Origin: Parcubacteria group bacterium LiPW_15
GTDB lineage: Bacteria > Patescibacteriota > Minisyncoccia > UBA6257 > 2-01-FULL-56-20
Length of the DNA: 64,000 bases
Assembly: GCA_007375645.1 (NCBI GenBank)
Contig: VMER01000001.1
Location: forward strand, 337,576 to 401,575
Direction of reading: 5' to 3'
The stretch's first letter is position 1. The number at the start of each line of letters is the position of its first letter. This document shows, piece by piece, positions 5,039-59,487 of this stretch. The position numbers were made by a program, and so were the translations under genes. The notes beneath the pieces are model-generated. The model was not told the origin of the DNA, searched no databases, and saw nothing but the letters and a program-made list of their open reading frames with translations.

Positions 5039-5377
5039 TTATTTACAGTCTGCGCAAAAATAATATTTTTTACCAGCCTTGTTCTCGCCGACCACCCCAA
5101 CCGTGCCCTTGGAAATTGTTTTCCCGCAAGAAGCGCATTCCATATCCTGAGCGAACTGGGCCCGGTGGAAACTCACAATATCTTCGAATTTATTTTTTTT
5201 ATCCCCCGCGCCGAATATCTCCCGCGAAAGATCATGGATTATCTCCACGCTGTCCTCTATCGCCTTGCGAGCCAAATTGGAAACGCTCTCTCGGTTCTCC
5301 TTGGCTTTCTGCTTCATCTTTTCGTAGGTTTTCCGGGAAACCCGAAAATTAATGATGTAGTCCTTGTTTTCGTCCAT
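5039..5377 (-). CDS. small ribbon-helix-helix (CopG-like) protein with C-terminal CxxC...CxxC zinc ribbon
   Basis: 112 aa; N-terminus INFRVSRKTYEKMKQKAKE..SVSNLARKAIED (RHH-like); C-terminus CASCGK...FCADCK. Confidence 0.6.
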   Translation of the reverse strand: MDENKDYIINFRVSRKTYEKMKQKAKENRESVSNLARKAIEDSVEIIHDLSREIFGAGDKKNKFEDIVSFHRAQFAQDMECASCGKTISKGTVGVVGENKAGKKYYFCADCK

Positions 5378-13119: not shown

Positions 13120-13162
13120 GAACCAAGGGGTTGCAGGTTCGAGTCCTGCCGAGCGCACACCA
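13120..13162 (+). other. tRNA 3'-half-like fragment (T-arm GCAGG-TTCGAGT-CCTGC plus acceptor-like strand plus CCA) with no matching 5' half
   Basis: ...GGTTCGAGTCCTGCCGAGCGCACACCA lies immediately after tRNA-Arg; no complementary acceptor 5' strand found. Confidence 0.4.
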
Positions 13163-13227
13163 AACAAGAAATGCCCACAAGGGAGAGTTTTGTTTTATGT
13201 GCACAAAGCGTGCCGCTCAAGGGGATC

Positions 13228-35335: not shown

Positions 35336-35361
35336 TTTGTTTGCGCAGCCTGCTACCATTA

Positions 35362-35381
35362 CCTGCCTGCCGGCAGGCAGG
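35362..35381. repeat. perfect 20 bp palindrome CCTGCCTGCCGGCAGGCAGG (copy 1 of 3)
   Basis: exact match to copies at 51029 and 58962. Confidence 0.9.
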
Positions 35382-35444
35382 GATGACCCGGCAATTGCGT
35401 ATTAACGCACATCAATATTACCCAAATAAGCGTTTTTTGGCAAC

Positions 35445-37653: not shown

Positions 37654-38688
37654 CTAAGCAGGCAGTTTTTCAATTTCTGCTTCAATAAATTTATCCAAAT
37701 CTCCCGCAAGCACTTCGTCCACCCTTGCAGTTTCTTCCTCTGTTCTGTGGTCCTTCACCATTTGATAAGGATTTAAAACGTAAGAACGGAGTTGGTTTCC
37801 CCATTCCGGCTTAACATTTATCCTTAGCTCCTTTATCTCTTTCACTTTATTCGCCTCCATAAGCTGTAAAAGTTTGGCTTTTAAAAGATTCAGGGCCTTT
37901 TCCCGATTCTGCGCCTGGCTACGTTCCGCCCGGCTCGCAGCCACAATGCCCGTCGGAATATGCGCAACCCGGACGGCGGTCTCCACCTTATTCACATTCT
38001 GTCCCCCGGGGCCTCCGGCGCGTGAAAATTCAAATTTCAGATCAGCATCCGGGATCTCCAATTTCTGCGCGTCTACTTGCGGAAGATCTGGCAAGACTTC
38101 AACCAAAGCAAAGGAGGTGTGCCTAAGTTTCTTCGGAGAAAATGGAGAGATCCTCACAAGCCGATGCACACCGGATTCTCGACGCAGATAACCATAGGCG
38201 TTCGCTCCCGCAATTTCCAAAGTCGCGCTCCGGATATTATCGTCCAGAACCTTTGTCTTCCAGCCGCGGCGCTTGGCATAGCCCTCATACATTTTAAAAA
38301 GCATAGTGGCCCAATCTTCCGCATCTTCGCCGCCGGCTCCGGGGAAAATAGAAATTATCGCAGACTGTTTGTCGTGCGTACCCGTAAAAAGTTCCCGGAG
38401 CTCCAGACTCCTGAATATTCTTCGGGCTTCAAAAAAATCTCCTTCGCTTCCCGCTTCCGCTTTTTGCACGGCGGAAAGGACTTCCTCATAGCGAGCCATT
38501 ACGTCCTGCAGCTCGCCCATCTCTTTTATTTTTTGATCCGCCGCTTCGCGGTTGGACCAGAATCCGGGCTCGGACATCTCTGCTTCAAGTTCCGTGAGTT
38601 TCTGCCGTTTTTCGAAAACTCCAAGTTTTTCGCCCAAAGCGGCGACTTCATTTTTCAGATCCTCGATTGTTTCGAGCTCGTGAGTCAT
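37654..38688 (-). CDS. prfB: peptide chain release factor 2 (contiguous ORF, no programmed frameshift)
   Basis: 345 aa from MTHELE; SPF tripeptide motif; GGQ motif. Confidence 0.9.
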   Translation of the reverse strand: MTHELETIEDLKNEVAALGEKLGVFEKRQKLTELEAEMSEPGFWSNREAADQKIKEMGELQDVMARYEEVLSAVQKAEAGSEGDFFEARRIFRSLELRELFTGTHDKQSAIISIFPGAGGEDAEDWATMLFKMYEGYAKRRGWKTKVLDDNIRSATLEIAGANAYGYLRRESGVHRLVRISPFSPKKLRHTSFALVEVLPDLPQVDAQKLEIPDADLKFEFSRAGGPGGQNVNKVETAVRVAHIPTGIVAASRAERSQAQNREKALNLLKAKLLQLMEANKVKEIKELRINVKPEWGNQLRSYVLNPYQMVKDHRTEEETARVDEVLAGDLDKFIEAEIEKLPA

Positions 38689-38698
38689 TGATCTTTTC

Positions 38699-38772
38699 TG
38701 GAGCCGATGGAGGGAATCGAACCCACGTTTATGCTTTACGAAAGCACCGTTCTGCCATTGAACTACATCGGC
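38699..38772 (-). tRNA. tRNA-Thr (anticodon CGT), CCA encoded
   Basis: reverse complement folds as GCCGATG-TA-GTTC..; anticodon loop TTCGTAA; one U-U mismatch in the T-stem. Confidence 0.7.
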
Positions 38773-38869
38773 AATATTTACTTCCCTGAGTTTAGCCGAA
38801 ACCGATAAAAAACTCCAGATAATCAAAACCTCCGCGGAAGCGGAGGTTTTGATGCTGAAAAAATCATTC

Positions 38870-39346
38870 CTATCCCAGCTTACTCGCAACGTAATTGGTA
38901 AATTCCTGTTCGGTCGGCGGAATGCCACCACTGTCTCCCATGTATTTTTCGTATATACCCTCCAAGACTCCTTCCAGCTTGGCCCGAGCTTCGGCCTCAC
39001 GAGCCTGTTGCTCAACACCGACTGGCTTGTGAAAGCCCATACCTTGTTTCTGAAGATATTTTTCAACGAGAGCATCAATTATCTTCTCTTTTTTTGTCTT
39101 AGTCTCTGTCGGCAATTCTTCTTTCTGCCCATCCAATAAATTTGCGACATAACCAGTAAGCTCCTGTTCGGTCGGCGGAACACCGCCGCTCTCTGTCATA
39201 TATTTCACAAAAATGCCCTCGAGAATACTTTTAAGCTTTGCCCTATCACCAGCCTCACGGCTATATTGCATATCTATCGCGGCATCAGAAAGACCCGCCC
39301 CTGGGAGGCCCCTACCCTGCTCGTGAAGATATTTATCAACGAGCAC
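38870..39346 (-). CDS. hypothetical protein made of two (plus a partial third) roughly 70 aa tandem repeats
   Basis: 158 aa; repeats IDALVEKYLQKQG..GGIPPTEQEFTNYVASKL and LVDKYLHEQG..GGVPPTEQELTGYVANLL; GTG start. Confidence 0.55.
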   Translation of the reverse strand: MLVDKYLHEQGRGLPGAGLSDAAIDMQYSREAGDRAKLKSILEGIFVKYMTESGGVPPTEQELTGYVANLLDGQKEELPTETKTKKEKIIDALVEKYLQKQGMGFHKPVGVEQQAREAEARAKLEGVLEGIYEKYMGDSGGIPPTEQEFTNYVASKLG

Positions 39347-43690: not shown

Positions 43691-43708
43691 CTTTGCAGGG
43701 TGGACCCG

Positions 43709-43889
43709 GGGAGATATCTCACGCGCTCGTTCCACTCGCTTTTCAGAACCCACGGTTCTGAATAATCTCCTCCACGGGGAACCGAGCGCGGTTCCCCGAC
43801 CCCCTCCGCTGTTCGATTCTCCCTTAATCATAGAATTAAATCAACCGACCATAAAGGCCGATTTGATTTAATTTGTGGACCCGGGGAGA
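43709..43889 (+). mobile_element. miniature tRNA-3'-end-associated element, copy A
   Basis: 15 bp direct repeat gtggacccggggaga at 43709..43723 and 43875..43889 (the tRNA-Ala(CGC) 3' end); conserved core at 43768..43823; nested-palindrome hairpin. Confidence 0.55.
43768..43823 (+). repeat. conserved core of the miniature element: TCCTCCACGG-ggaaccgagcgcggttcc-CCGACCCCCTccgctGTTCGATTCTCCC
   Basis: shares CCACGG..G(N)TTCCCCGACCCC..GTyCGAkTC with copies B (57205..57259) and C (50750..50843, minus strand); the last 13 nt are an inverted copy of the tRNA-Ala(CGC) T-arm. Confidence 0.6.
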
Positions 43890-43946
43890 ATCGAACTCCC
43901 GCCTCAGCAATGCGAATGCCGCGTTATGCCACTTAACTACGGGCCC
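43876..43946 (-). tRNA. tRNA-Ala (anticodon CGC), G3:U70, no encoded CCA
   Basis: reverse complement folds as GGGCCCG-TA-GTTA..; anticodon loop TTCGCAT; T-arm GGGAG-TTCGATT-CTCCC. Confidence 0.8.
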
Positions 43947-45248: not shown

Positions 45249-45647
45249 TTATTTCTTTTGATGTTTCCGCTTATGTAACGCCTTGGATTTTTGGGTCAGA
45301 GCAAAAACCGAAAGAACCATTATATACGCGGCAACGGCTTCCGAAGAAACCTCGTAGGCATCCCCCAGGATAAAAGTGAAGCCCATAAGTATAAGAATGA
45401 TGACGGTCCAGGCAGCCACGAAAAGTTCGCCGGGGTGGCGATCCTCGGCGTGCATATCATACCAACGATCGAATTCTTTTGTGCCCACATACAATCCCAA
45501 AATACCTATATAGATTATGCTCATCGGTCCGATCAAGCGCTCGAAGCGGTTATGCAGAAAAAAATTCGCACAAATGAACATGAGAAATACGTAAGTCCAA
45601 ATGTTCGTAAGAACCCGCCAAATCTTTTCGTCTTTAAATACGCTCAT
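45249..45647 (-). CDS. hypothetical membrane protein
   Basis: 132 aa; 3-4 predicted TM helices. Confidence 0.5.
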   Translation of the reverse strand: MSVFKDEKIWRVLTNIWTYVFLMFICANFFLHNRFERLIGPMSIIYIGILGLYVGTKEFDRWYDMHAEDRHPGELFVAAWTVIILILMGFTFILGDAYEVSSEAVAAYIMVLSVFALTQKSKALHKRKHQKK

Positions 45648-47101
45648 TTCACGTAATGTCTTTTCTTCATTTCTCCTTCGATCCCCGCTTCGAATTCCTC
45701 GGTTTTCTTTTTGGATTTTTCTTTGAGCTCCTCAAGTTGTTTTTCTGAGTAAAGTGCAAGCTCTTTCACCCGCTCTTCCAAATATTCTTTGTCATTCTTT
45801 TTTGGATCATCCAAAACTTCATCGAGAAGCGCCGCGAGTATCTGGCCAACTTTCGGAGAAGGAGCAAGCCCCGCAATGCGCATTACTTCCGATCCGTCTA
45901 CCTTAAGCATTTTGGCCGATACCGGATCGCGCCGCACTTTGTCTATCATGAACTGCAAATGCCTGAGTTTATAAGGCACAGCCTTGGGCACGCCCGACCC
46001 GATGCGATCCGCCTCGCGAACCTTTAAAAGATCGTCTATAGAATCCTCGCCGACACGGGCGATAAAGCGTCTTACCCCGGCTTCGCTTACTTCGCCGACG
46101 TTATAGTAGAACAAATGATAGCGCACCAAGTGCGCGACCTGTTCGGTCAGTTCTTTTGAAAATCGCAATTTATCCATTAGCCCCACGCACATCCTCGCGC
46201 CGATGGAATCATGATTATAAAAAGTGGAATGGAGTCCCTCCCCCTTTTTAGAGCGGGGTTTGCCGACGTCATGAAAGAGTGAGGCTAAGCGGACAGCGAG
46301 CGAATATCCCTGTTTCGCGGAGTAACCCAGAGCCCGCACATTGTGTTCAAAAACCGTATAGATGTGATGGAGGTTTTGGCCCACTCCAAGCCCTTCGCGC
46401 AACTCCGCGCAAACATAACGCAACATGTCCAGTTGTTCCAAAAGCACGATCCCGTCCGCAGCTCTATCGGCCATAATTATCTTCACAAATTCGTCGCGCA
46501 GCCGTTCTTCGGCAATCGCCTCCAAAAGACCTGCCTTCTCTTCTATCGCCCGCCGGGTCGCATAGTCTATTTGAAAATCCAATTCGGTCGCGAACCTGAC
46601 CGCCCTCATCATGCGCAACGCGTCTTCATCAAAGCGGGCCACCGGATTGCCGACGGTACGGATAACTTTTACGCGCAGATCCTCCTGTCCCCCGTAAGGG
46701 TCAATTATCTTTTTGCCTTCCGCGTCCATAGCCATCGCGTTTATCGTGAACGATCGGCGCGAAAGATCTTCCTCCACCGTTTTCGCAAAGCGAACTTCAT
46801 CCGGATGGCGCTTATCCGAATATTTGCCTTCTATTCTATAAGTCGTGACTTCCACTATCTTCAGACGAGGGTCTTCGGATTCGGTTTTTACACCGACCGT
46901 GCCGAATTTGTTTTCATAAACGCTGTCCGGAAAAAGAGCTTGGATCTCCTCCGGCGTGGCGTTCGTGGTTATATCCCAATCTTTCGGTTCTCGGCCGAGC
47001 AAAACATCGCGCACGCAACCGCCCACAAGATATGCCTCGAAACCAGCCTTCTCAAGCGTTATGGCAATGCCTTTTGCTATGTCCGGTACGACATATTTCA
47101 T
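45644..47101 (-). CDS. cca: CCA-adding tRNA nucleotidyltransferase with HD domain
   Basis: 485 aa; GGCVRD..D.D nucleotidyltransferase head and HD motif. Confidence 0.9.
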   Translation of the reverse strand: MKYVVPDIAKGIAITLEKAGFEAYLVGGCVRDVLLGREPKDWDITTNATPEEIQALFPDSVYENKFGTVGVKTESEDPRLKIVEVTTYRIEGKYSDKRHPDEVRFAKTVEEDLSRRSFTINAMAMDAEGKKIIDPYGGQEDLRVKVIRTVGNPVARFDEDALRMMRAVRFATELDFQIDYATRRAIEEKAGLLEAIAEERLRDEFVKIIMADRAADGIVLLEQLDMLRYVCAELREGLGVGQNLHHIYTVFEHNVRALGYSAKQGYSLAVRLASLFHDVGKPRSKKGEGLHSTFYNHDSIGARMCVGLMDKLRFSKELTEQVAHLVRYHLFYYNVGEVSEAGVRRFIARVGEDSIDDLLKVREADRIGSGVPKAVPYKLRHLQFMIDKVRRDPVSAKMLKVDGSEVMRIAGLAPSPKVGQILAALLDEVLDDPKKNDKEYLEERVKELALYSEKQLEELKEKSKKKTEEFEAGIEGEMKKRHYVK

Positions 47102-50414: not shown

Positions 50415-50460
50415 GAGTTTATTTTAACAGAAGTTTAGGCTCTCTTAAAGACGGCGTCTG

Positions 50461-50532
50461 TGGCTGGGGTGAGAATCGGACTCACGACCCGACGCTTATG
50501 AAACGTCTGCTCTACCACTGAGCTACCCAGCC
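50461..50532 (-). tRNA. tRNA-Met/Ile2 (anticodon CAT), elongator type, no encoded CCA
   Basis: reverse complement folds as GGCTGGG-TA-GCTC-AGTGGTA-GAGC..; anticodon loop TTCATAA. Confidence 0.8.
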
Positions 50533-50621
50533 ATTTGAGTGAATCAAATACATTTTTAGCATCAAATCACGTTTTTGACAATCCGCACTTTAGATATATA
50601 ATAACGAAGCAATTAATTACC

Positions 50622-50694
50622 GCGGGAGGATTAGGGAATGGTTTCCCGGGGAGCCCCATAAGCTCTTGAAGCTGGTCCGATTCCAGCTCCCGCA
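50622..50694 (+). ncRNA. non-canonical tRNA-like gene (perfect 7 bp acceptor stem GCGGGAG/CTCCCGC, T-arm GCTGG-TCCGATT-CCAGC, irregular D/anticodon region)
   Basis: 73 nt; acceptor and T-arm fold by hand, but no canonical anticodon arm; its 3' end is the direct-repeat target of element C. Confidence 0.45.
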
Positions 50695-50964
50695 ACAAGA
50701 AACAAAAACACCCCGAGGGGTGTTTTTGTTTTGATGTTGGAATCGGACGTGAAGGGGGTCGGGGAAACGGCGGTTGCTCGCGCAAGTAAACAAACGTCTT
50801 TCCGCCGATAGGCGGGGCCGTGGCGGAAATACTGCAATTGGTAGCGAGGATAAAATGGCATTGAACATTTTAGCCGAGCGAACCAATTGATGGCTTGTCC
50901 TTCAAACCGCGGGGTGTTAGAAAATTCGCAAAGCGAATTTTGTCTGCTTCCAGCTCCCGCAACA
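50681..50964 (-). mobile_element. miniature tRNA-3'-end-associated element, copy C
   Basis: 17 bp direct repeat ttccagctcccgcaaca at 50681..50697 (the tRNA-like 3' end) and 50948..50964; conserved core at 50750..50843 on the minus strand, with a roughly 45 nt expansion of the hairpin; spacer homologous to copy B. Confidence 0.55.
50704..50731. terminator. bidirectional intrinsic terminator / centre of a 22 bp nested palindrome
   Basis: aaaaacaccccgaggggtgttttt. Confidence 0.65.
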
Positions 50965-51028
50965 GCTTCAGTTTTCAATTTCGCGAAGACAGCGTCAACC
51001 GCTTCCAGCGAGCGGTTGCGCCTGAATC

Positions 51029-51048
51029 CCTGCCTGCCGGCAGGCAGG
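51029..51048. repeat. perfect 20 bp palindrome CCTGCCTGCCGGCAGGCAGG (copy 2 of 3)
   Basis: exact match; lies in a roughly 900 bp ORF-poor region. Confidence 0.9.
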
Positions 51049-51201
51049 TCGTAGCAAAAATCTGCCATTCGGCAGAACCAATCTTTTTGCTCCTCCAATG
51101 TCCTCCGCAAAATCGAAAACTTCCGCCGTGGAAGTAAGAGAAAAAAATATACAAAAAAAGCCGGTGTCCGCCACATACGTGGTTTCGTGTCCGGCTGCGC
51201 T

Positions 51202-51447
51202 TCACTGGGAAGCAGAGGTGGAATTCGGATTAAGCTTCGCCCGCAGCTCCGCGAGGAGCTCGACCGGATTGACGCCCCTGGCGTCCTTCGGTAGCAGGGC
51301 GCAGGCAGCCTCAACCAGCTTCTCCTCGAATGGGGTTCTTGTGTGGTTGGGGCTGGACTCATGGATTTCCCGGAGCGTCTTCAGAACGACGGTCATGAGC
51401 TTATCGTTCCCGAGCGATCGCAGATCGATTTCGTCCTTTTTGGGCAT
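51202..51447 (-). CDS. hypothetical small GC-rich protein
   Basis: 81 aa from the ATG preceded by a GAGAGGAG RBS. Confidence 0.4.
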   Translation of the reverse strand: MPKKDEIDLRSLGNDKLMTVVLKTLREIHESSPNHTRTPFEEKLVEAACALLPKDARGVNPVELLAELRAKLNPNSTSASQ

Positions 51448-57027: not shown

Positions 57028-57144
57028 CCCACAATCTTAAACCCAGGACCCGCGCATATCAAAACTCCCTTTCCCGTTCGAGCCGCTAGATTAAATGCTT
57101 ATTTCTAAATACCATGCCAGAGCCAACTTTAAATATCTTTCAAA

Positions 57145-57322
57145 GTCGGCCGGAATCAAACAAAATTTGCTTCTCAAATTTTCTAACACCTTGTGGTTTT
57201 AGTATTTCCACCACGGGGAAACTTCCGTTTCCCCGACCCCTTTCCCGTTCGAGTCCGGCTGGATACAGAGCAACCAAAAAATGCCCGATGGGCATATTTT
57301 GGTTGCTGCGCGGTCGGCCGGA
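57145..57322 (+). mobile_element. miniature tRNA-3'-end-associated element, copy B
   Basis: direct repeat gtcggccgga(N)tc at 57145..57157 and 57313..57325 (inside the tRNA-Asp 3' region); conserved core at 57205..57259; nested palindrome. Confidence 0.55.
57275..57300. terminator. bidirectional intrinsic terminator between element B and tRNA-Asp
   Basis: aaaaaatgcccgatgggcatatttt inside the outer stem gcaaccaaaa/ttttggttgc. Confidence 0.65.
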
Positions 57323-57383
57323 CTCGAACCGGTAACCCCCGCCGTGACAGGGCGGTGCTCTAACCAAATTGAGCTACGACCGC
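57309..57383 (-). tRNA. tRNA-Asp (anticodon GTC), no encoded CCA
   Basis: reverse complement folds as GCGGTCG-TA-GCTC..; anticodon loop CTGTCAC; T-arm CCGG-TTCGAGT-CCGG. Confidence 0.8.
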
Positions 57384-57429: not shown

Positions 57430-59487
57430 CTATCCGATGAGCCTTAGGAATTCCTTTTCGCTTAGGATTTTGACCCCCAGCTCTTTAGCCTTCTTATACT
57501 TACTCCCCGGCTCGGCACCGGCCACGAGATAAGAGGTTTTGGAGCTAACCGATTCGGAAACGTCTCCCCCAAGTTCTCTTATCTTTTGTTTCGCAAGCTC
57601 GCGAGACATGGAATCCATGGAACCGGTGATGACAAAAGAAAGGTCTTTCAGTTTTTCGACTTTCACCGAAGGCGGCGCGAGAACAATCACTACCCCGGCG
57701 GCTTCAAGCTTTCCCAAAAGATGAGTATTCCTTTTTTCCTTGAACCATTCGTAAATGCTTTCGGCGACTTTCGGACCAATATCTTTTATCTCTTGTAATC
57801 GCTCCAGCGAAAGTCCGCCGTAAAAGTTCAAAAATTTGGAAATGCTCAAGCGCCCACTCTTCTTCTCCGGAAATATATTCGCAAGGGTTATCGCAGTTTC
57901 TTCGCCCACATGAATTATTCCTAAGGAGTAAATAAAGCGTGAAAGAGGGACTGATCTTTTCGCTTCGACTTCTTTTATAACATTTTCCGCCGACTTTTCA
58001 CCGAAACGAGGCAGGGCTTCCACATCTCCTTGTTTCAGGGTAAAAATGTCCGCCGCATCGACTATCAAGCCCTCGTCCAATAATCTATCTATTATTTTTG
58101 GACCCAAACCGTCCAAATTAAATCCTCCGCGGGATATAAAATGATAAAGCTGCTCCCTGTGTCGCGCGCCGCAATACTTGTTGGAACATTTATAAGCCAC
58201 CCCGTCACGAATGACCCCGGACCCGTCTACGGGACAGTTCTCCGGCATCTTGAACTTTTTTTCCTTGCCGGTCCGGAACTCCGGCAAAACCTTGGTTATT
58301 TGCGGGATAACGTCTCCGGCCCGGGAAACGATAACTGTGTCGCCAACCCTTACCCCAAGCCGTTCTATCTCATCCGCATTATGAAGGCTCGCGTGGGTTA
58401 TGGTCACGCCGCCCACGTTCACCGGACGCATCACCGCGACCGGCGTCAGCGCCCCAGTACGACCGACCTGAACCTCTATCGCCTCCACAATGGTCGTGGC
58501 TTCCCTCGGAGAAAACTTGTAGGCGATTCCCGCGCGCGGAGTTTTGCCGATTATCCCCGCTTCTTCGTATGTGGCGTTGTCGTTTATGGAAATAACTATG
58601 CCGTCTATTTCATAAGCAAGGCGCTCTCTCATTTTTAGAACGTCTTTATGAAATTCGAATATCTCTTCTATATTTCTCGCAACTATGCCGTGCGGATTGG
58701 TTTTGAGCCCGTATTTATTGAGTTCGGCGTATTCCTCGGATTTTGTTCTGTATCCGGGAGTAACAACATCGTAGGCGTAAAAATCCAATTTCCTTGAGGC
58801 GGTTATCTTCGGATCCAATTGCCGTATGGAACCGGCGGCGACATTGCGAGGATTCGCATAGGGTTTTTCTCCTTTTTTCTCCTGCTCGCGGTTCAGCCTC
58901 GCAAATTCTTTTTTGGTCAGGAAGGTTTCCCCGCGAACGATGAGGCGCTTGGGATATCCGCCCTGCCTGCCGGCAGGCAGGTCCCCTCTCTCGAGTCTTA
59001 AGGGTATCGCGTCAATAGTTTTCAAATTTTCCGTGACATCTTCGCCGATCATGCCGTCTCCGCGCGTGGACCCGGAAACAAAGAGGCCATCTTCGTAGAT
59101 AAGCTCCATCGCGAGACCGTCCATTTTTAGATCGCAATAAAATCCGTTTTTTGCGAAACTAGTTTTGGGTCCGAAATAATTTTTTAGACGCGTGAGCCAT
59201 TCCTGAATATCCTGCGGGGAAAATGCGTCGTTTAGGGAGATCATCCGCGTTCCGTGCCTGACTTTTTTAAAAGCGGAAAGCGGCTTTCCCCCAACCCGTT
59301 GAGTCGGTGAATCTTTGGCAATAAATTCCGGATAGCGCGATTCCAGATCAAAAAGCTCCTTCTTTAAAGAGTCCAGGGCCCCTTCGGAAATAAGAGATTT
59401 ATCCAAAACATGGTACGCGTAGCGGTACTTATTTATTTCCGTCTTTAGTTTTTCGATACGCTTCTTGGCCTCATCCTTAGCCGTCAT
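57430..59487 (-). CDS. ligA: NAD-dependent DNA ligase
   Basis: 685 aa; adenylation KxDG region, OB fold, Zn finger, HhH and BRCT; carries an in-frame 7 aa insertion LPAGRQG encoded by the 20 bp palindrome. Confidence 0.95.
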   Translation of the reverse strand: MTAKDEAKKRIEKLKTEINKYRYAYHVLDKSLISEGALDSLKKELFDLESRYPEFIAKDSPTQRVGGKPLSAFKKVRHGTRMISLNDAFSPQDIQEWLTRLKNYFGPKTSFAKNGFYCDLKMDGLAMELIYEDGLFVSGSTRGDGMIGEDVTENLKTIDAIPLRLERGDLPAGRQGGYPKRLIVRGETFLTKKEFARLNREQEKKGEKPYANPRNVAAGSIRQLDPKITASRKLDFYAYDVVTPGYRTKSEEYAELNKYGLKTNPHGIVARNIEEIFEFHKDVLKMRERLAYEIDGIVISINDNATYEEAGIIGKTPRAGIAYKFSPREATTIVEAIEVQVGRTGALTPVAVMRPVNVGGVTITHASLHNADEIERLGVRVGDTVIVSRAGDVIPQITKVLPEFRTGKEKKFKMPENCPVDGSGVIRDGVAYKCSNKYCGARHREQLYHFISRGGFNLDGLGPKIIDRLLDEGLIVDAADIFTLKQGDVEALPRFGEKSAENVIKEVEAKRSVPLSRFIYSLGIIHVGEETAITLANIFPEKKSGRLSISKFLNFYGGLSLERLQEIKDIGPKVAESIYEWFKEKRNTHLLGKLEAAGVVIVLAPPSVKVEKLKDLSFVITGSMDSMSRELAKQKIRELGGDVSESVSSKTSYLVAGAEPGSKYKKAKELGVKILSEKEFLRLIG
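58962..58981. repeat. perfect 20 bp palindrome CCTGCCTGCCGGCAGGCAGG (copy 3 of 3), inside the ligA coding sequence
   Basis: exact match; ligA remains a continuous ORF across it. Confidence 0.9.

Follow-up and report, generated by a model that had tools for sequence, protein, structure and literature searches.

Locus C occupies a 1.09-kb gap in a 64,000-nucleotide (nt) stretch of Parcubacteria group bacterium LiPW_15, which was analyzed as a whole and is referred to below as the window. The gap is bordered by pheS on one side and a murD-like gene on the other, in housekeeping surroundings that comprise pheST, a murD-like ligase, gatA, ligA, tuf, fusA, and a CCA-adding enzyme. It holds two divergent transfer RNA (tRNA) genes with the anticodon CAU, one an elongator-type tRNA-Met and the other of unusual build (named here the odd tRNA), and a small hairpin-rich insertion behind the latter, copy C of an element also found behind tRNA-Ala(cgc) (copy A) and tRNA-Asp (copy B). 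What an earlier note on this DNA had described was all recovered, most of it beyond chance expectation. The note had seen here a tRNA-like gene of non-canonical form that was the target of the same element as other tRNA loci of the window. This was borne out by homologues of the odd tRNA with compensatory changes and by the two further copies; in addition, the odd-tRNA site is filled in some relatives and empty in others. With a probability of about 0.75, locus C is made up of two distinct things, a functional non-canonical initiator-type tRNA(CAU) and a degraded copy of an insertion element that occurs at tRNA 3′ ends across the Patescibacteria. The features are collected in the table.

Features of locus C, related element copies, and a separate palindromic repeat (window coordinates)
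Feature	Position	Strand	Basis
Elongator-type tRNA(CAU)	50460–50532	−	G1-C72, T loop UCCGAUU; ARAGORN; Rfam tRNA 66.2 bits
Odd-tRNA promoter, TTGACA, 16-nt spacer, TATAAT	50575–50602	+	Consensus scan, sigma-70, 12/12 positions
Odd tRNA, non-canonical, putative initiator-type tRNA(CAU)	50621–50695	+	Minimum free energy fold is the cloverleaf; CCA not encoded
Proximal 17-nt direct repeat (tRNA positions 59–73 plus CA), inside the odd tRNA	50681–50697	+	Exact match
Palindrome with A and T tracts, AAACAAAAACACCCC-GA-GGGGTGTTTTTGTTT	50700–50731		Sequence
Inverted partial copy of the odd-tRNA 3′ part; acceptor-stem segment missing	50735–50748	+	Sequence
Body of element copy C	50749–50947	−	Motif searches; covariance model R1
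Distal 17-nt direct repeat, far end of the insertion	50948–50964	+	Exact match
Element copy B, behind tRNA-Asp (57308–57383, −)	57133–57307	+	R1 77.6 bits at 57170–57248
Element copy A, behind tRNA-Ala(cgc) (43875–43946, −)	43701–43874	+	R1 67.3 bits at 43729–43811
23-nt perfect palindromic repeat CCCTGCCTGCCGGCAGGCAGGTC	35361–35384, 51028–51050, 58961–58983		Three copies in the window

Structure and promoter of the odd tRNA

The gene start was moved from G50622, as given in the earlier note, to C50621, and the odd tRNA therefore has both the initiator signature (C1 opposite A72, followed by A73) and a normal T stem of 5 bp. The acceptor stem carries the C1·A72 mismatch, G2–G6 paired with C67–C71, and the discriminator A73. 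The D and anticodon arms had been described as unrecognizable, a claim that did not hold, as both are readable. The D hairpin, GGGAA-UGGU-UUCCC, consists of a 5-bp stem and a 4-nt NGGU loop, and the connector is 6 nt in the window fold and 4–6 nt in the family. The anticodon stem is 6 bp long and closes the loop CCCAUAA, which gives the anticodon CAU and places a C at position 33; the variable loop is only 3 nt (GAA), and the T arm reads GCUGG-UCCGAUU-CCAGC. The canonical tRNA geometry, with a 2-nt connector, a D arm of a 4-bp stem and a 7–11-nt loop, a 5-bp anticodon stem, and U33, is not matched. The T loop UCCGAUU has C55 in place of the near-universal U55 in both CAU tRNAs of locus C, and C55 was also seen in about half of the odd-tRNA family and in some element arms (e.g. 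at loci L059 and L079).

The sigma-70 promoter ends 18 nt upstream of C1, and the same hexamers are kept in three related genomes (L120–L122). When tRNA detection was run, as the earlier note had advised, ARAGORN did not call the odd tRNA in the window, and seven of its homologues were called in a shifted register. The Rfam scan at gathering thresholds returned only ten ordinary tRNAs in the window; in E-value mode, the best hit of the odd tRNA was the tRNA-Sec model RF01852, at a sub-threshold 33.5 bits against a gathering score of 47.

Covariation in relatives

Compensatory changes relative to the window were observed at increasing distance. Where PheS identity is 91–93% (L120–L122), two T-stem base pairs differ by compensatory changes; at 83% (L123), an A-U pair of the D hairpin has become C-G; and at 70% (L126), the anticodon stem shows G·U to A-U and G·U to G-C, and the T stem U-A to G-C. 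A metagenome scan added 49 further loci. The search pattern fixed the 5′ end and the anticodon loop and left positions 72 and 73 free, and 26 distinct sequences from Parcubacteria contigs were aligned and scored against our cloverleaf. C1·A72, A73, and the loop CCCAUAA with its invariant C33 were present in all 26. Standard pairs were formed in 95.8% of the cells, as compared with 27–65% when the partners were slid by 1–3 columns, and six pairs were altered on both sides. None of 500 shuffles matched the observed percentage paired, the cells changed on both sides, the pair types, or the covariation score, and two of the 500 matched the count of six both-side-changed pairs. A7 and N66 face each other as A·C in 22 of the 26 sequences, and the invariant G8 could pair with C or U66 in every one; A7 is therefore probably bulged, with G8 pairing N66. 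By this comparative evidence the odd tRNA is a real, conserved tRNA, all four stems of which are backed by covariation.

The opposite view, which takes the sequence for a pseudo-tRNA in decay or for part of another noncoding RNA such as transfer-messenger RNA (tmRNA) or RNase P RNA, draws on the failure of ARAGORN, the sub-threshold Rfam score, the odd D-arm geometry, C33, and the C55 found in half of the family. It is effectively refuted: because the stems of 26 distinct homologues covary, with compensatory changes in all variable stems, the gene is not a pseudogene, and it is preceded by a perfect consensus promoter. No tmRNA was called in the window by ARAGORN, and a scan with all 4227 Rfam families gave no tmRNA, RNase P, or other non-tRNA match overlapping the odd tRNA (to E = 10). 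Decay without conservation, or a better fit to a known noncoding RNA, had been named in the earlier note as what would overturn the tRNA, and neither was found.

The initiator question

The anticodon and the 3′ end raise the question of which CAU tRNA this is. In E. coli tRNAfMet (CGCGGGG...CCCCGCAACCA), C1 stands opposite A72, followed by A73, and this is the bacterial initiator signature. The odd tRNA shares with bacterial tRNA(fMet) the C1·A72 mismatch, A73, the 3′ end ...CCCGCAAC, and the CAU followed by AA, as well as the neighbouring elongator tRNA-Met seen in other Patescibacteria, where canonical initiators (CUCAUAA loop, normal D arm) adjoin the elongator gene; here the odd tRNA holds that place. 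The contigs with the odd tRNA add up to 370 kb, and not one of their 61 ARAGORN tRNAs is a canonical initiator. It differs from tRNA(fMet) in the 4–6-nt connector, the probably bulged A7, the D arm cut to a 5-bp stem and 4-nt loop, the 6-bp anticodon stem without the three loop-adjacent G:C pairs, C33 for U33, the 3-nt variable loop, and C55 in about half of the members. The long D stem and 4-nt loop are common to tRNA-Sec, its best Rfam model, and to allo-tRNAs. Unlike tRNA-Sec, the odd tRNA has no long variable arm and no 8/5 or 9/4 acceptor/T geometry, reads CAU instead of UCA, and has an acceptor-plus-T helix of about 12 positions rather than 13 bp. We conclude from these sequence features that it appears to be a derived initiator-type tRNA, most likely the initiator of a Parcubacteria subclade. 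An unusual initiator tRNA of Parcubacteria is not described in the literature covered by our full-text searches.

Three copies of one element in the window

On the tRNA strand, copies A, B, and C share one layout. The tRNA is followed by a perfect palindrome containing A and T tracts, the T loop and 3′ T stem in inverted copy, the body, and a direct repeat of the tRNA 3′ end with a length of 15 nt (A), 10 nt (B), or 17 nt (C). The duplication of 17 nt at a distance of 267 bp, reported in the earlier note, is exact: TTCCAGCTCCCGCAACA occurs twice only, where 0.2 matches are expected at ≤3 mismatches. A palindrome is present where a 22-bp terminator had been described, and it is longer than that, with two perfect 15-nt arms. 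It looks like a bidirectional terminator lying between the odd tRNA and the element, and equivalent yet unrelated palindromes stand at this position in other element copies. The inverted T-loop copy was also recovered (GGAATCGGAC at 50739–50748), as the reverse complement of odd-tRNA positions 53–62; TGTTG in the same arm is the reverse complement of the odd-tRNA 3′ end.

The core motifs AGTATTTCCGCCACGG (50818–50833) and CGTTTCCCCGACCCC (50755–50769), assigned to the minus strand in the earlier note, were found there exactly. Both recur at 57.2 kb, and CGTTTCCCCGACCCC also at 43.8 kb with one mismatch. In minus-strand order, the body of copy C starts with GCAGAC, hairpin 0 (AAAATTCGC/GCGAATTTT), and hairpin 1 (CTAACACC..GGTTTGAAGG), continues through an extra insert of about 65 nt (50834–50898), the linker AGTATTTCCG, and CCACGG, and ends with an interrupted hairpin 2 and GTTTCCCCG-ACCCCCTTC. 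Copy B has the direct repeat TCCGGCCGAC, an intact body, the inverted copy GCCGGACTCGAAC, and a terminator palindrome (inverted repeats I2–I4). Copy A has the direct repeat TCTCCCCGGGTCCAC, the inverted copy GGGAGAATCGAAC, and hairpin 2 as CGGGGAACCG-AGCG-CGGTTCCCCG (inverted repeat I7). Covariance model R1, built from 56 element copies, detected only A, B, and C within the window, with copy C at 22.7 bits (50747–50861, −). Copy C is degraded and interrupted, given its broken hairpin 2, the additional insert, and the inverted arm that lacks the acceptor-stem segment.

Filled and empty sites

The odd-tRNA site was compared among relatives. In the empty sites of L121, L122, and L123, the odd tRNA is directly followed by its own trailer and terminator. 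In the filled site of L120, a 176-nt insert and a 16-nt repeat intervene, the original trailer and terminator now lie past the distal repeat, and this repeat is contiguous with the flank present in the empty sites. Altogether, the element occupies at least 7 of some 50 sites behind odd-tRNA genes. In related genomes, bodies identical over about 80 nt were found behind tRNA-Thr (L094), tRNA-Gln (L101), tRNA-Cys (L025), and another tRNA (L100). The arms of these near-identical copies fit their own tRNA, and their terminator palindromes are unrelated. Because identical bodies at different tRNAs carry locus-specific arms, the mobile shared unit is the body, and the arms are made from the target. 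The arms of L100 are mismatched (chimeric), as expected from recombination between copies.

The insertion thus leaves the tRNA intact and duplicates tRNA positions ~57/59–74 as a direct repeat. It places a palindromic terminator beside the tRNA, then the inverted copy of the T loop and T stem, then the body. The flanking arms derive from the local tRNA at each insertion, and the body alone is common to the copies.

Distribution across the phylum

The pattern CCACGGGGAA-N(4–24)-TTCCCCGACCCC was searched for, and the core motif was found at no fewer than 119 genome loci, nearly all in Patescibacteria. Saccharibacteria and many Parcubacteria lineages are among them, and one genome often carries several copies. 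A convergent (tail-to-tail) tRNA lies within 150 nt of 57 of 120 copies, with 31 anticodons among the matches listed. Most of the tRNA-adjacent copies listed have a sense tRNA copy of 6–22 nt exact, which begins 5–7 nt past ACCCC and starts from tRNA position 50–54; in three, the tRNA match after ACCCC is under 6 nt. The reverse complement of tRNA positions 57/60–74, typically 13–18 nt exact, is located 40–90 nt upstream of the core. These copies share a conserved body of about 110 nt, and the element measures about 110–200 nt. A second subtype, about 200 nt long, bears self-contained hairpins at either end; its termini are sharp, no duplication flanks it, and it is often found at contig ends.

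Several identities were considered for the element and rejected. An autonomous version recognizable by a recurrent neighbouring protein was sought by all-against-all clustering of the open reading frames (ORFs) within 2.5 kb of the 120 copies, in which no family recurred in more than 9 loci. No Rfam 15 family was matched at threshold; the best weak hit, LOOT (21.8 vs 46.4 bits), is on the opposite strand and was judged to be chance. Viral contigs, phages, and plasmids gave no match, which disfavors a phage or plasmid origin, and a group I intron was dismissed because the body is too short and has no Rfam hit. No description of the element was found by full-text literature searches. With high confidence, we regard the family as previously undescribed, small, non-autonomous, highly structured insertion elements that land at tRNA 3′ ends. 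The descriptive conclusions on both the odd tRNA and the element likewise carry high confidence.

Two side observations were made in this survey. At L003 (~800–1150, tRNA-Gly tcc), copies of the 3′ end of tRNA-Gly are broken at the same T-loop position by a small insert of another kind (TCTCGGTCACGAGTTAC..., ~130 nt); several repeats of the tRNA-Gly 3′ segment are present there, and the site draws more than one element type. At L071 (~5160–5340), a ~200-nt copy of the non-tRNA subtype contains a nested insertion of about 100 nt with its own inverted ends (GGGACTGTTGCCGAATGGC...GCTATTCGGCAACAGTCCC), which looks like another miniature element.

Hairpins, mirror tail, and strand

In hairpin 2, CGGGGAAAC-N4-GTTTCCCCG and its length variants, 506 of 509 pairs are Watson-Crick, and the 4-nt loop varies freely. 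AACC..GGTT is constant in hairpin 1, whose outer pairs change compensatorily. The pyrimidine tail that follows hairpin 2 mirrors the purine strand of the hairpin according to the rule nC + nT = 4 + nA, which holds in 101 of 114 distinct copies (Spearman 0.65, p = 6e-15). The mirror tail would be consistent with a pyrimidine-motif triple helix or H-DNA. The heptamer GCTTCGC was found 43 times on the element strand and once as its complement, so the tRNA strand carries GCGAAGC, a very stable DNA mini-hairpin.

Attempts to assign an RNA strand failed. The choice by G·U versus A·C gave 5:5 in the arms, and hairpin 2 has almost no non-Watson-Crick pairs; whole-region folding energy preferred the tRNA strand but was confounded by G-richness. 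An element-strand RNA forming a complete tRNA-like molecule was rejected since the acceptor-like end pairing is not kept in copies A and C, and a mimic of the 16S rRNA 3′ end by hairpin 1 plus linker was rejected because the likeness is confined to one subfamily. Taken together, the hairpin 2 pairing, the mirror tail, the GCGAAGC strand bias, and the arms without G·U/A·C asymmetry favor folded DNA over a classical RNA gene.

Comparison with known mobile systems

The element shares with casposons, which use a Cas1-family integrase, insertion at the 3′ end of a tRNA gene, an intact tRNA, and an unusually long duplication. The casposon target duplication is 14–15 bp of the tRNA 3′ end; the element repeat at the odd tRNA is 16–17 nt and ends at position 74/75 (copy C and L120). 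Such a long duplication ending exactly at the 3′ end of the tRNA gene resembles Cas1-type staggered integration. In contrast to casposons, the element is 100–200 bp rather than kilobases long, is found at many tRNA species, and has arms that copy the target rather than being fixed. No Cas1 or family-B polymerase genes were present among the window ORFs scanned, and none recurred beside the copies.

The architecture of the element resembles that of the CTX-phage attP(+) and integron attC sites in that inverted target-like arms about 100 nt apart could fold, within one strand, into a duplex copy of the target with an unpaired centre. The element arms pair, and the mismatched centre is the middle 2–3 nt of the T-loop complement (ATCTCAC vs ATCGAAC); further likenesses are the perfect stems, the free loops, and the strand-specific GCGAAGC. 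The element arms differ for each target, which those systems do not need, its direct repeat is 16–18 nt, and a XerCD or IntI role is hypothetical. Neither comparison explains the arms re-templated per tRNA or the origin of the terminator palindrome.

Genomic islands of tyrosine integrases and cis-mobilizable elements likewise have a direct repeat of the tRNA 3′ end from the T loop and leave the tRNA gene whole, whereas the element places one body at 31 tRNA species (among the matches listed), has an extra inverted copy of the target and a tiny size, and no integrase was found. The REP/BIME, BOX, RUP, Correia, and RPE repeats resemble it as short, multi-copy, hairpin-rich, noncoding, and intergenic sequences. 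Unlike it, they are restricted to species or genera and not tied to tRNA 3′ ends, and they lack target-derived arms as well as a mirror-repeat tail covarying with a hairpin. No bacterial repeat described so far combines or shows such features, whether arms newly copied from each target or a mirror rule that points to a triple helix.

A proposed route of insertion

With modest confidence, we propose a trans-mobilized, folded-DNA insertion element with target-templated arms. The element would move as folded single-stranded or hairpin DNA, its paired arms would rebuild a duplex copy of the T-arm and acceptor region of the tRNA gene, and a trans-acting enzyme with long staggered or one-strand exchanges would insert it. 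Candidate enzymes may be casposase/Cas1-like or of the tyrosine-recombination kind known from the CTX phage and integron attC. An alternative route may lead through reverse transcription and snap-back synthesis.

More specific versions were tried and did not survive. If the tRNA's own terminator had been the site of snap-back, a second copy of it would be expected past the distal repeat; such a copy is absent in L114 and in copies A and B, and weakly arguable in L120. A mature tRNA is not the template of the inverted arm because arms that reach position 73 continue into the gene flank (..ACA) and not into CCA, and the specific prediction of a model of reverse transcription primed by the mature tRNA fails. 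There is a real chance that the insertion chemistry is new. In the most far-reaching version, a body of about 110 nt with hairpins and a triplex-forming mirror tail would integrate as hairpin or single-stranded DNA with templated copying of its target. That Patescibacteria harbour a previously unrecognized kind of mobile element which rebuilds its arms for each tRNA target by a new insertion chemistry, together with a subclade initiator with a re-registered D arm and C33, is a tentative proposal, and we put the odds somewhat against it.

Weighing the readings

Several observations weigh against the reading of locus C as an initiator-type tRNA beside a mobile element. The odd tRNA lacks the canonical G29–G31:C39–C41 pairs of initiators: its loop-proximal anticodon-stem pairs are C-G, G-C, and A-U, and a GGG/CCC run occupies the outer end of this 6-bp stem. 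Neither an enzyme nor an autonomous partner turned up among the 50 window ORFs compared with Pfam or the ORFs near 120 copies, and for this reason it is the comparison of sites that argues for mobility. No known mechanism explains both the target-derived inverted arm and the locus-specific terminator, and each model tried fails at least one observation; a Campbell-type attP, for one, cannot account for identical bodies at different tRNAs. In addition, the 30-nt core is kept across classes of the phylum, which is unusual for a purely selfish repeat and may be a sign of host function.

The last point leads to the strongest competitor, in which the element is a conserved small RNA gene or regulatory module, rather than selfish DNA, that has spread by duplication. 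Such an RNA may, for example, be capped by an acceptor/T-minihelix mimic, be processed by RNase P, RNase Z, and the CCA-adding enzyme, and possibly form a hairpin-tail triple helix. The exact conservation of the core across Saccharibacteria and Parcubacteria, the covarying hairpins, a mirror-tail rule that fits a pyrimidine-motif triple helix on the element strand, the terminator at which all tRNA-adjacent copies end, terminal arms that would make an acceptor/T-like stem, and copy L009, which would be co-transcribed within a tRNA-Thr/tRNA-Thr cluster, all agree with an RNA. They have to be set against sites that are present or absent among close relatives, several copies per genome with some at contig ends, identical bodies at different tRNAs, the nearly complete Watson-Crick pairing of hairpin 2, the arms without G·U versus A·C asymmetry, the absence of an identified promoter for the element, and of the family from Rfam 15. 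On this balance, a small RNA is unlikely.

The repeats could otherwise be attL/attR scars, or miniature cis-mobilizable derivatives, of integrase-driven islands or prophages in tRNA genes. Direct repeats of the tRNA 3′ end are a classic genomic-island signature of P4-type integrases, and the 16–18-nt repeats agree with it, as do the different small insert at the same T-loop position in L003 and a tRNA-Asp-like 3′ fragment at 13127–13194 in the window. A Campbell-type attP, however, is specific to one tRNA, and here a single body of about 110 nt with matched arms occurs at 31 tRNA species (among the matches listed); the element is uniformly small, the 50 window ORFs contain no integrase, no neighbouring protein recurs, and viral contigs, phages, and plasmids were without a hit, which makes such scars improbable. 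We give equally little credence to an ordinary miniature inverted-repeat transposable element (MITE), with fixed terminal inverted repeats, a DDE transposase, and a preference for tRNA-proximal DNA. The element does match MITEs in being small, noncoding, non-autonomous, and multi-copy, in its presence or absence between relatives, and in its inverted termini and flanking direct repeats. Its inverted termini are not fixed, though, and copy whichever tRNA adjoins; the duplication is 10–18 nt and always covers the same tRNA positions (57/59–74), the non-tRNA subtype is sharp-ended without any duplication, and no transposase was found in the window ORFs or in the ORFs near the copies.

Rearrangements and other features of the window

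Locus C had been called a hotspot of small RNA and mobile sequence, a fair label, since among relatives the same intergenic region shows inversion, splitting of tRNA-Met, and partial duplication of tRNAs. The block of tRNA-Met, divergent promoters, and odd tRNA with its element (50415–50965) is inverted in the window as compared with the four relatives L120–L123; only the left breakpoint could be placed, near 50435. The divergent pairing of the two CAU tRNAs is itself present in relatives. The element probably drives rearrangements, as exemplified by the inverted tRNA block and the chimeric arms of L100. All three parts of the earlier interpretation (an odd tRNA, the same element, and an RNA-rich, ORF-poor hotspot) stand, except for the statement on the arms, and the initiator-type end and the phylum-wide family go beyond it. 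The lack of a convincing ORF was likewise upheld: the sole long ORF, 50631–51362 (−), lacks a Pfam match and extends over both the tRNA and the hairpins. The Pfam scan of the 50 window ORFs gave no integrase, transposase, recombinase, resolvase, or reverse transcriptase domain.

In L120, the elongator tRNA-Met (2340–2600, ortholog of 50460–50532) is broken in the anticodon loop by an insert of about 250 nt, of which about 73 nt are a second, intact tRNA-Met; the insert may be an intron or a nested insertion. Group I introns have been described in Patescibacteria tRNAs at position 35/36 in a report that does not concern this element (PMC13011429). L122 has a partial 5′ duplicate of the elongator tRNA-Met.

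The palindrome CCCTGCCTGCCGGCAGGCAGGTC, of which a "copy 2" at locus C had been listed and is confirmed as one of three in the window, is a separate repeat family outside the tRNA-targeting element. One copy lies in frame within ligA and encodes ..DLPAGRQGG.. in a variable loop of the adenylation domain, which recalls in-frame palindromic elements such as the Rickettsia RPE. The tRNA-Asp-like fragment at 13127–13194 comprises a 3′ half (variable loop to discriminator, then CA) and a terminator, without a 5′ half, at a distance of 34 nt downstream from tRNA-Arg(tcg). An element arm or a rearrangement may have left it behind. CA, and not CCA, comes after the discriminator in the four 3′ flanks read (tRNA-Arg, tRNA-Ala cgc, tRNA-Asp, and tRNA-Met) and in the odd tRNA, and the CCA-adding enzyme gene (45644–47101, −) adjoins pheT. 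The longest release-factor ORF (37654–39078, −) overlaps tRNA-Thr (38699–38772, −), and its Pfam domains begin only at residue 158; the true start of this gene is probably further downstream.

Implications

Because the odd tRNA escapes the ARAGORN and Rfam thresholds, genomes of this clade would be annotated as having no initiator tRNA. With its C33, 5-bp/4-nt D arm, 6-bp anticodon stem, and frequent C55, it probes the tolerance of the bacterial initiation machinery. In the window, up to a quarter of the tRNA genes have the element behind them. Its family is common in a phylum regarded as having little mobile DNA, and it breaks assemblies at contig ends. Knowing how the element moves could bring to light a new integration or templated-copying activity directed at tRNA genes.

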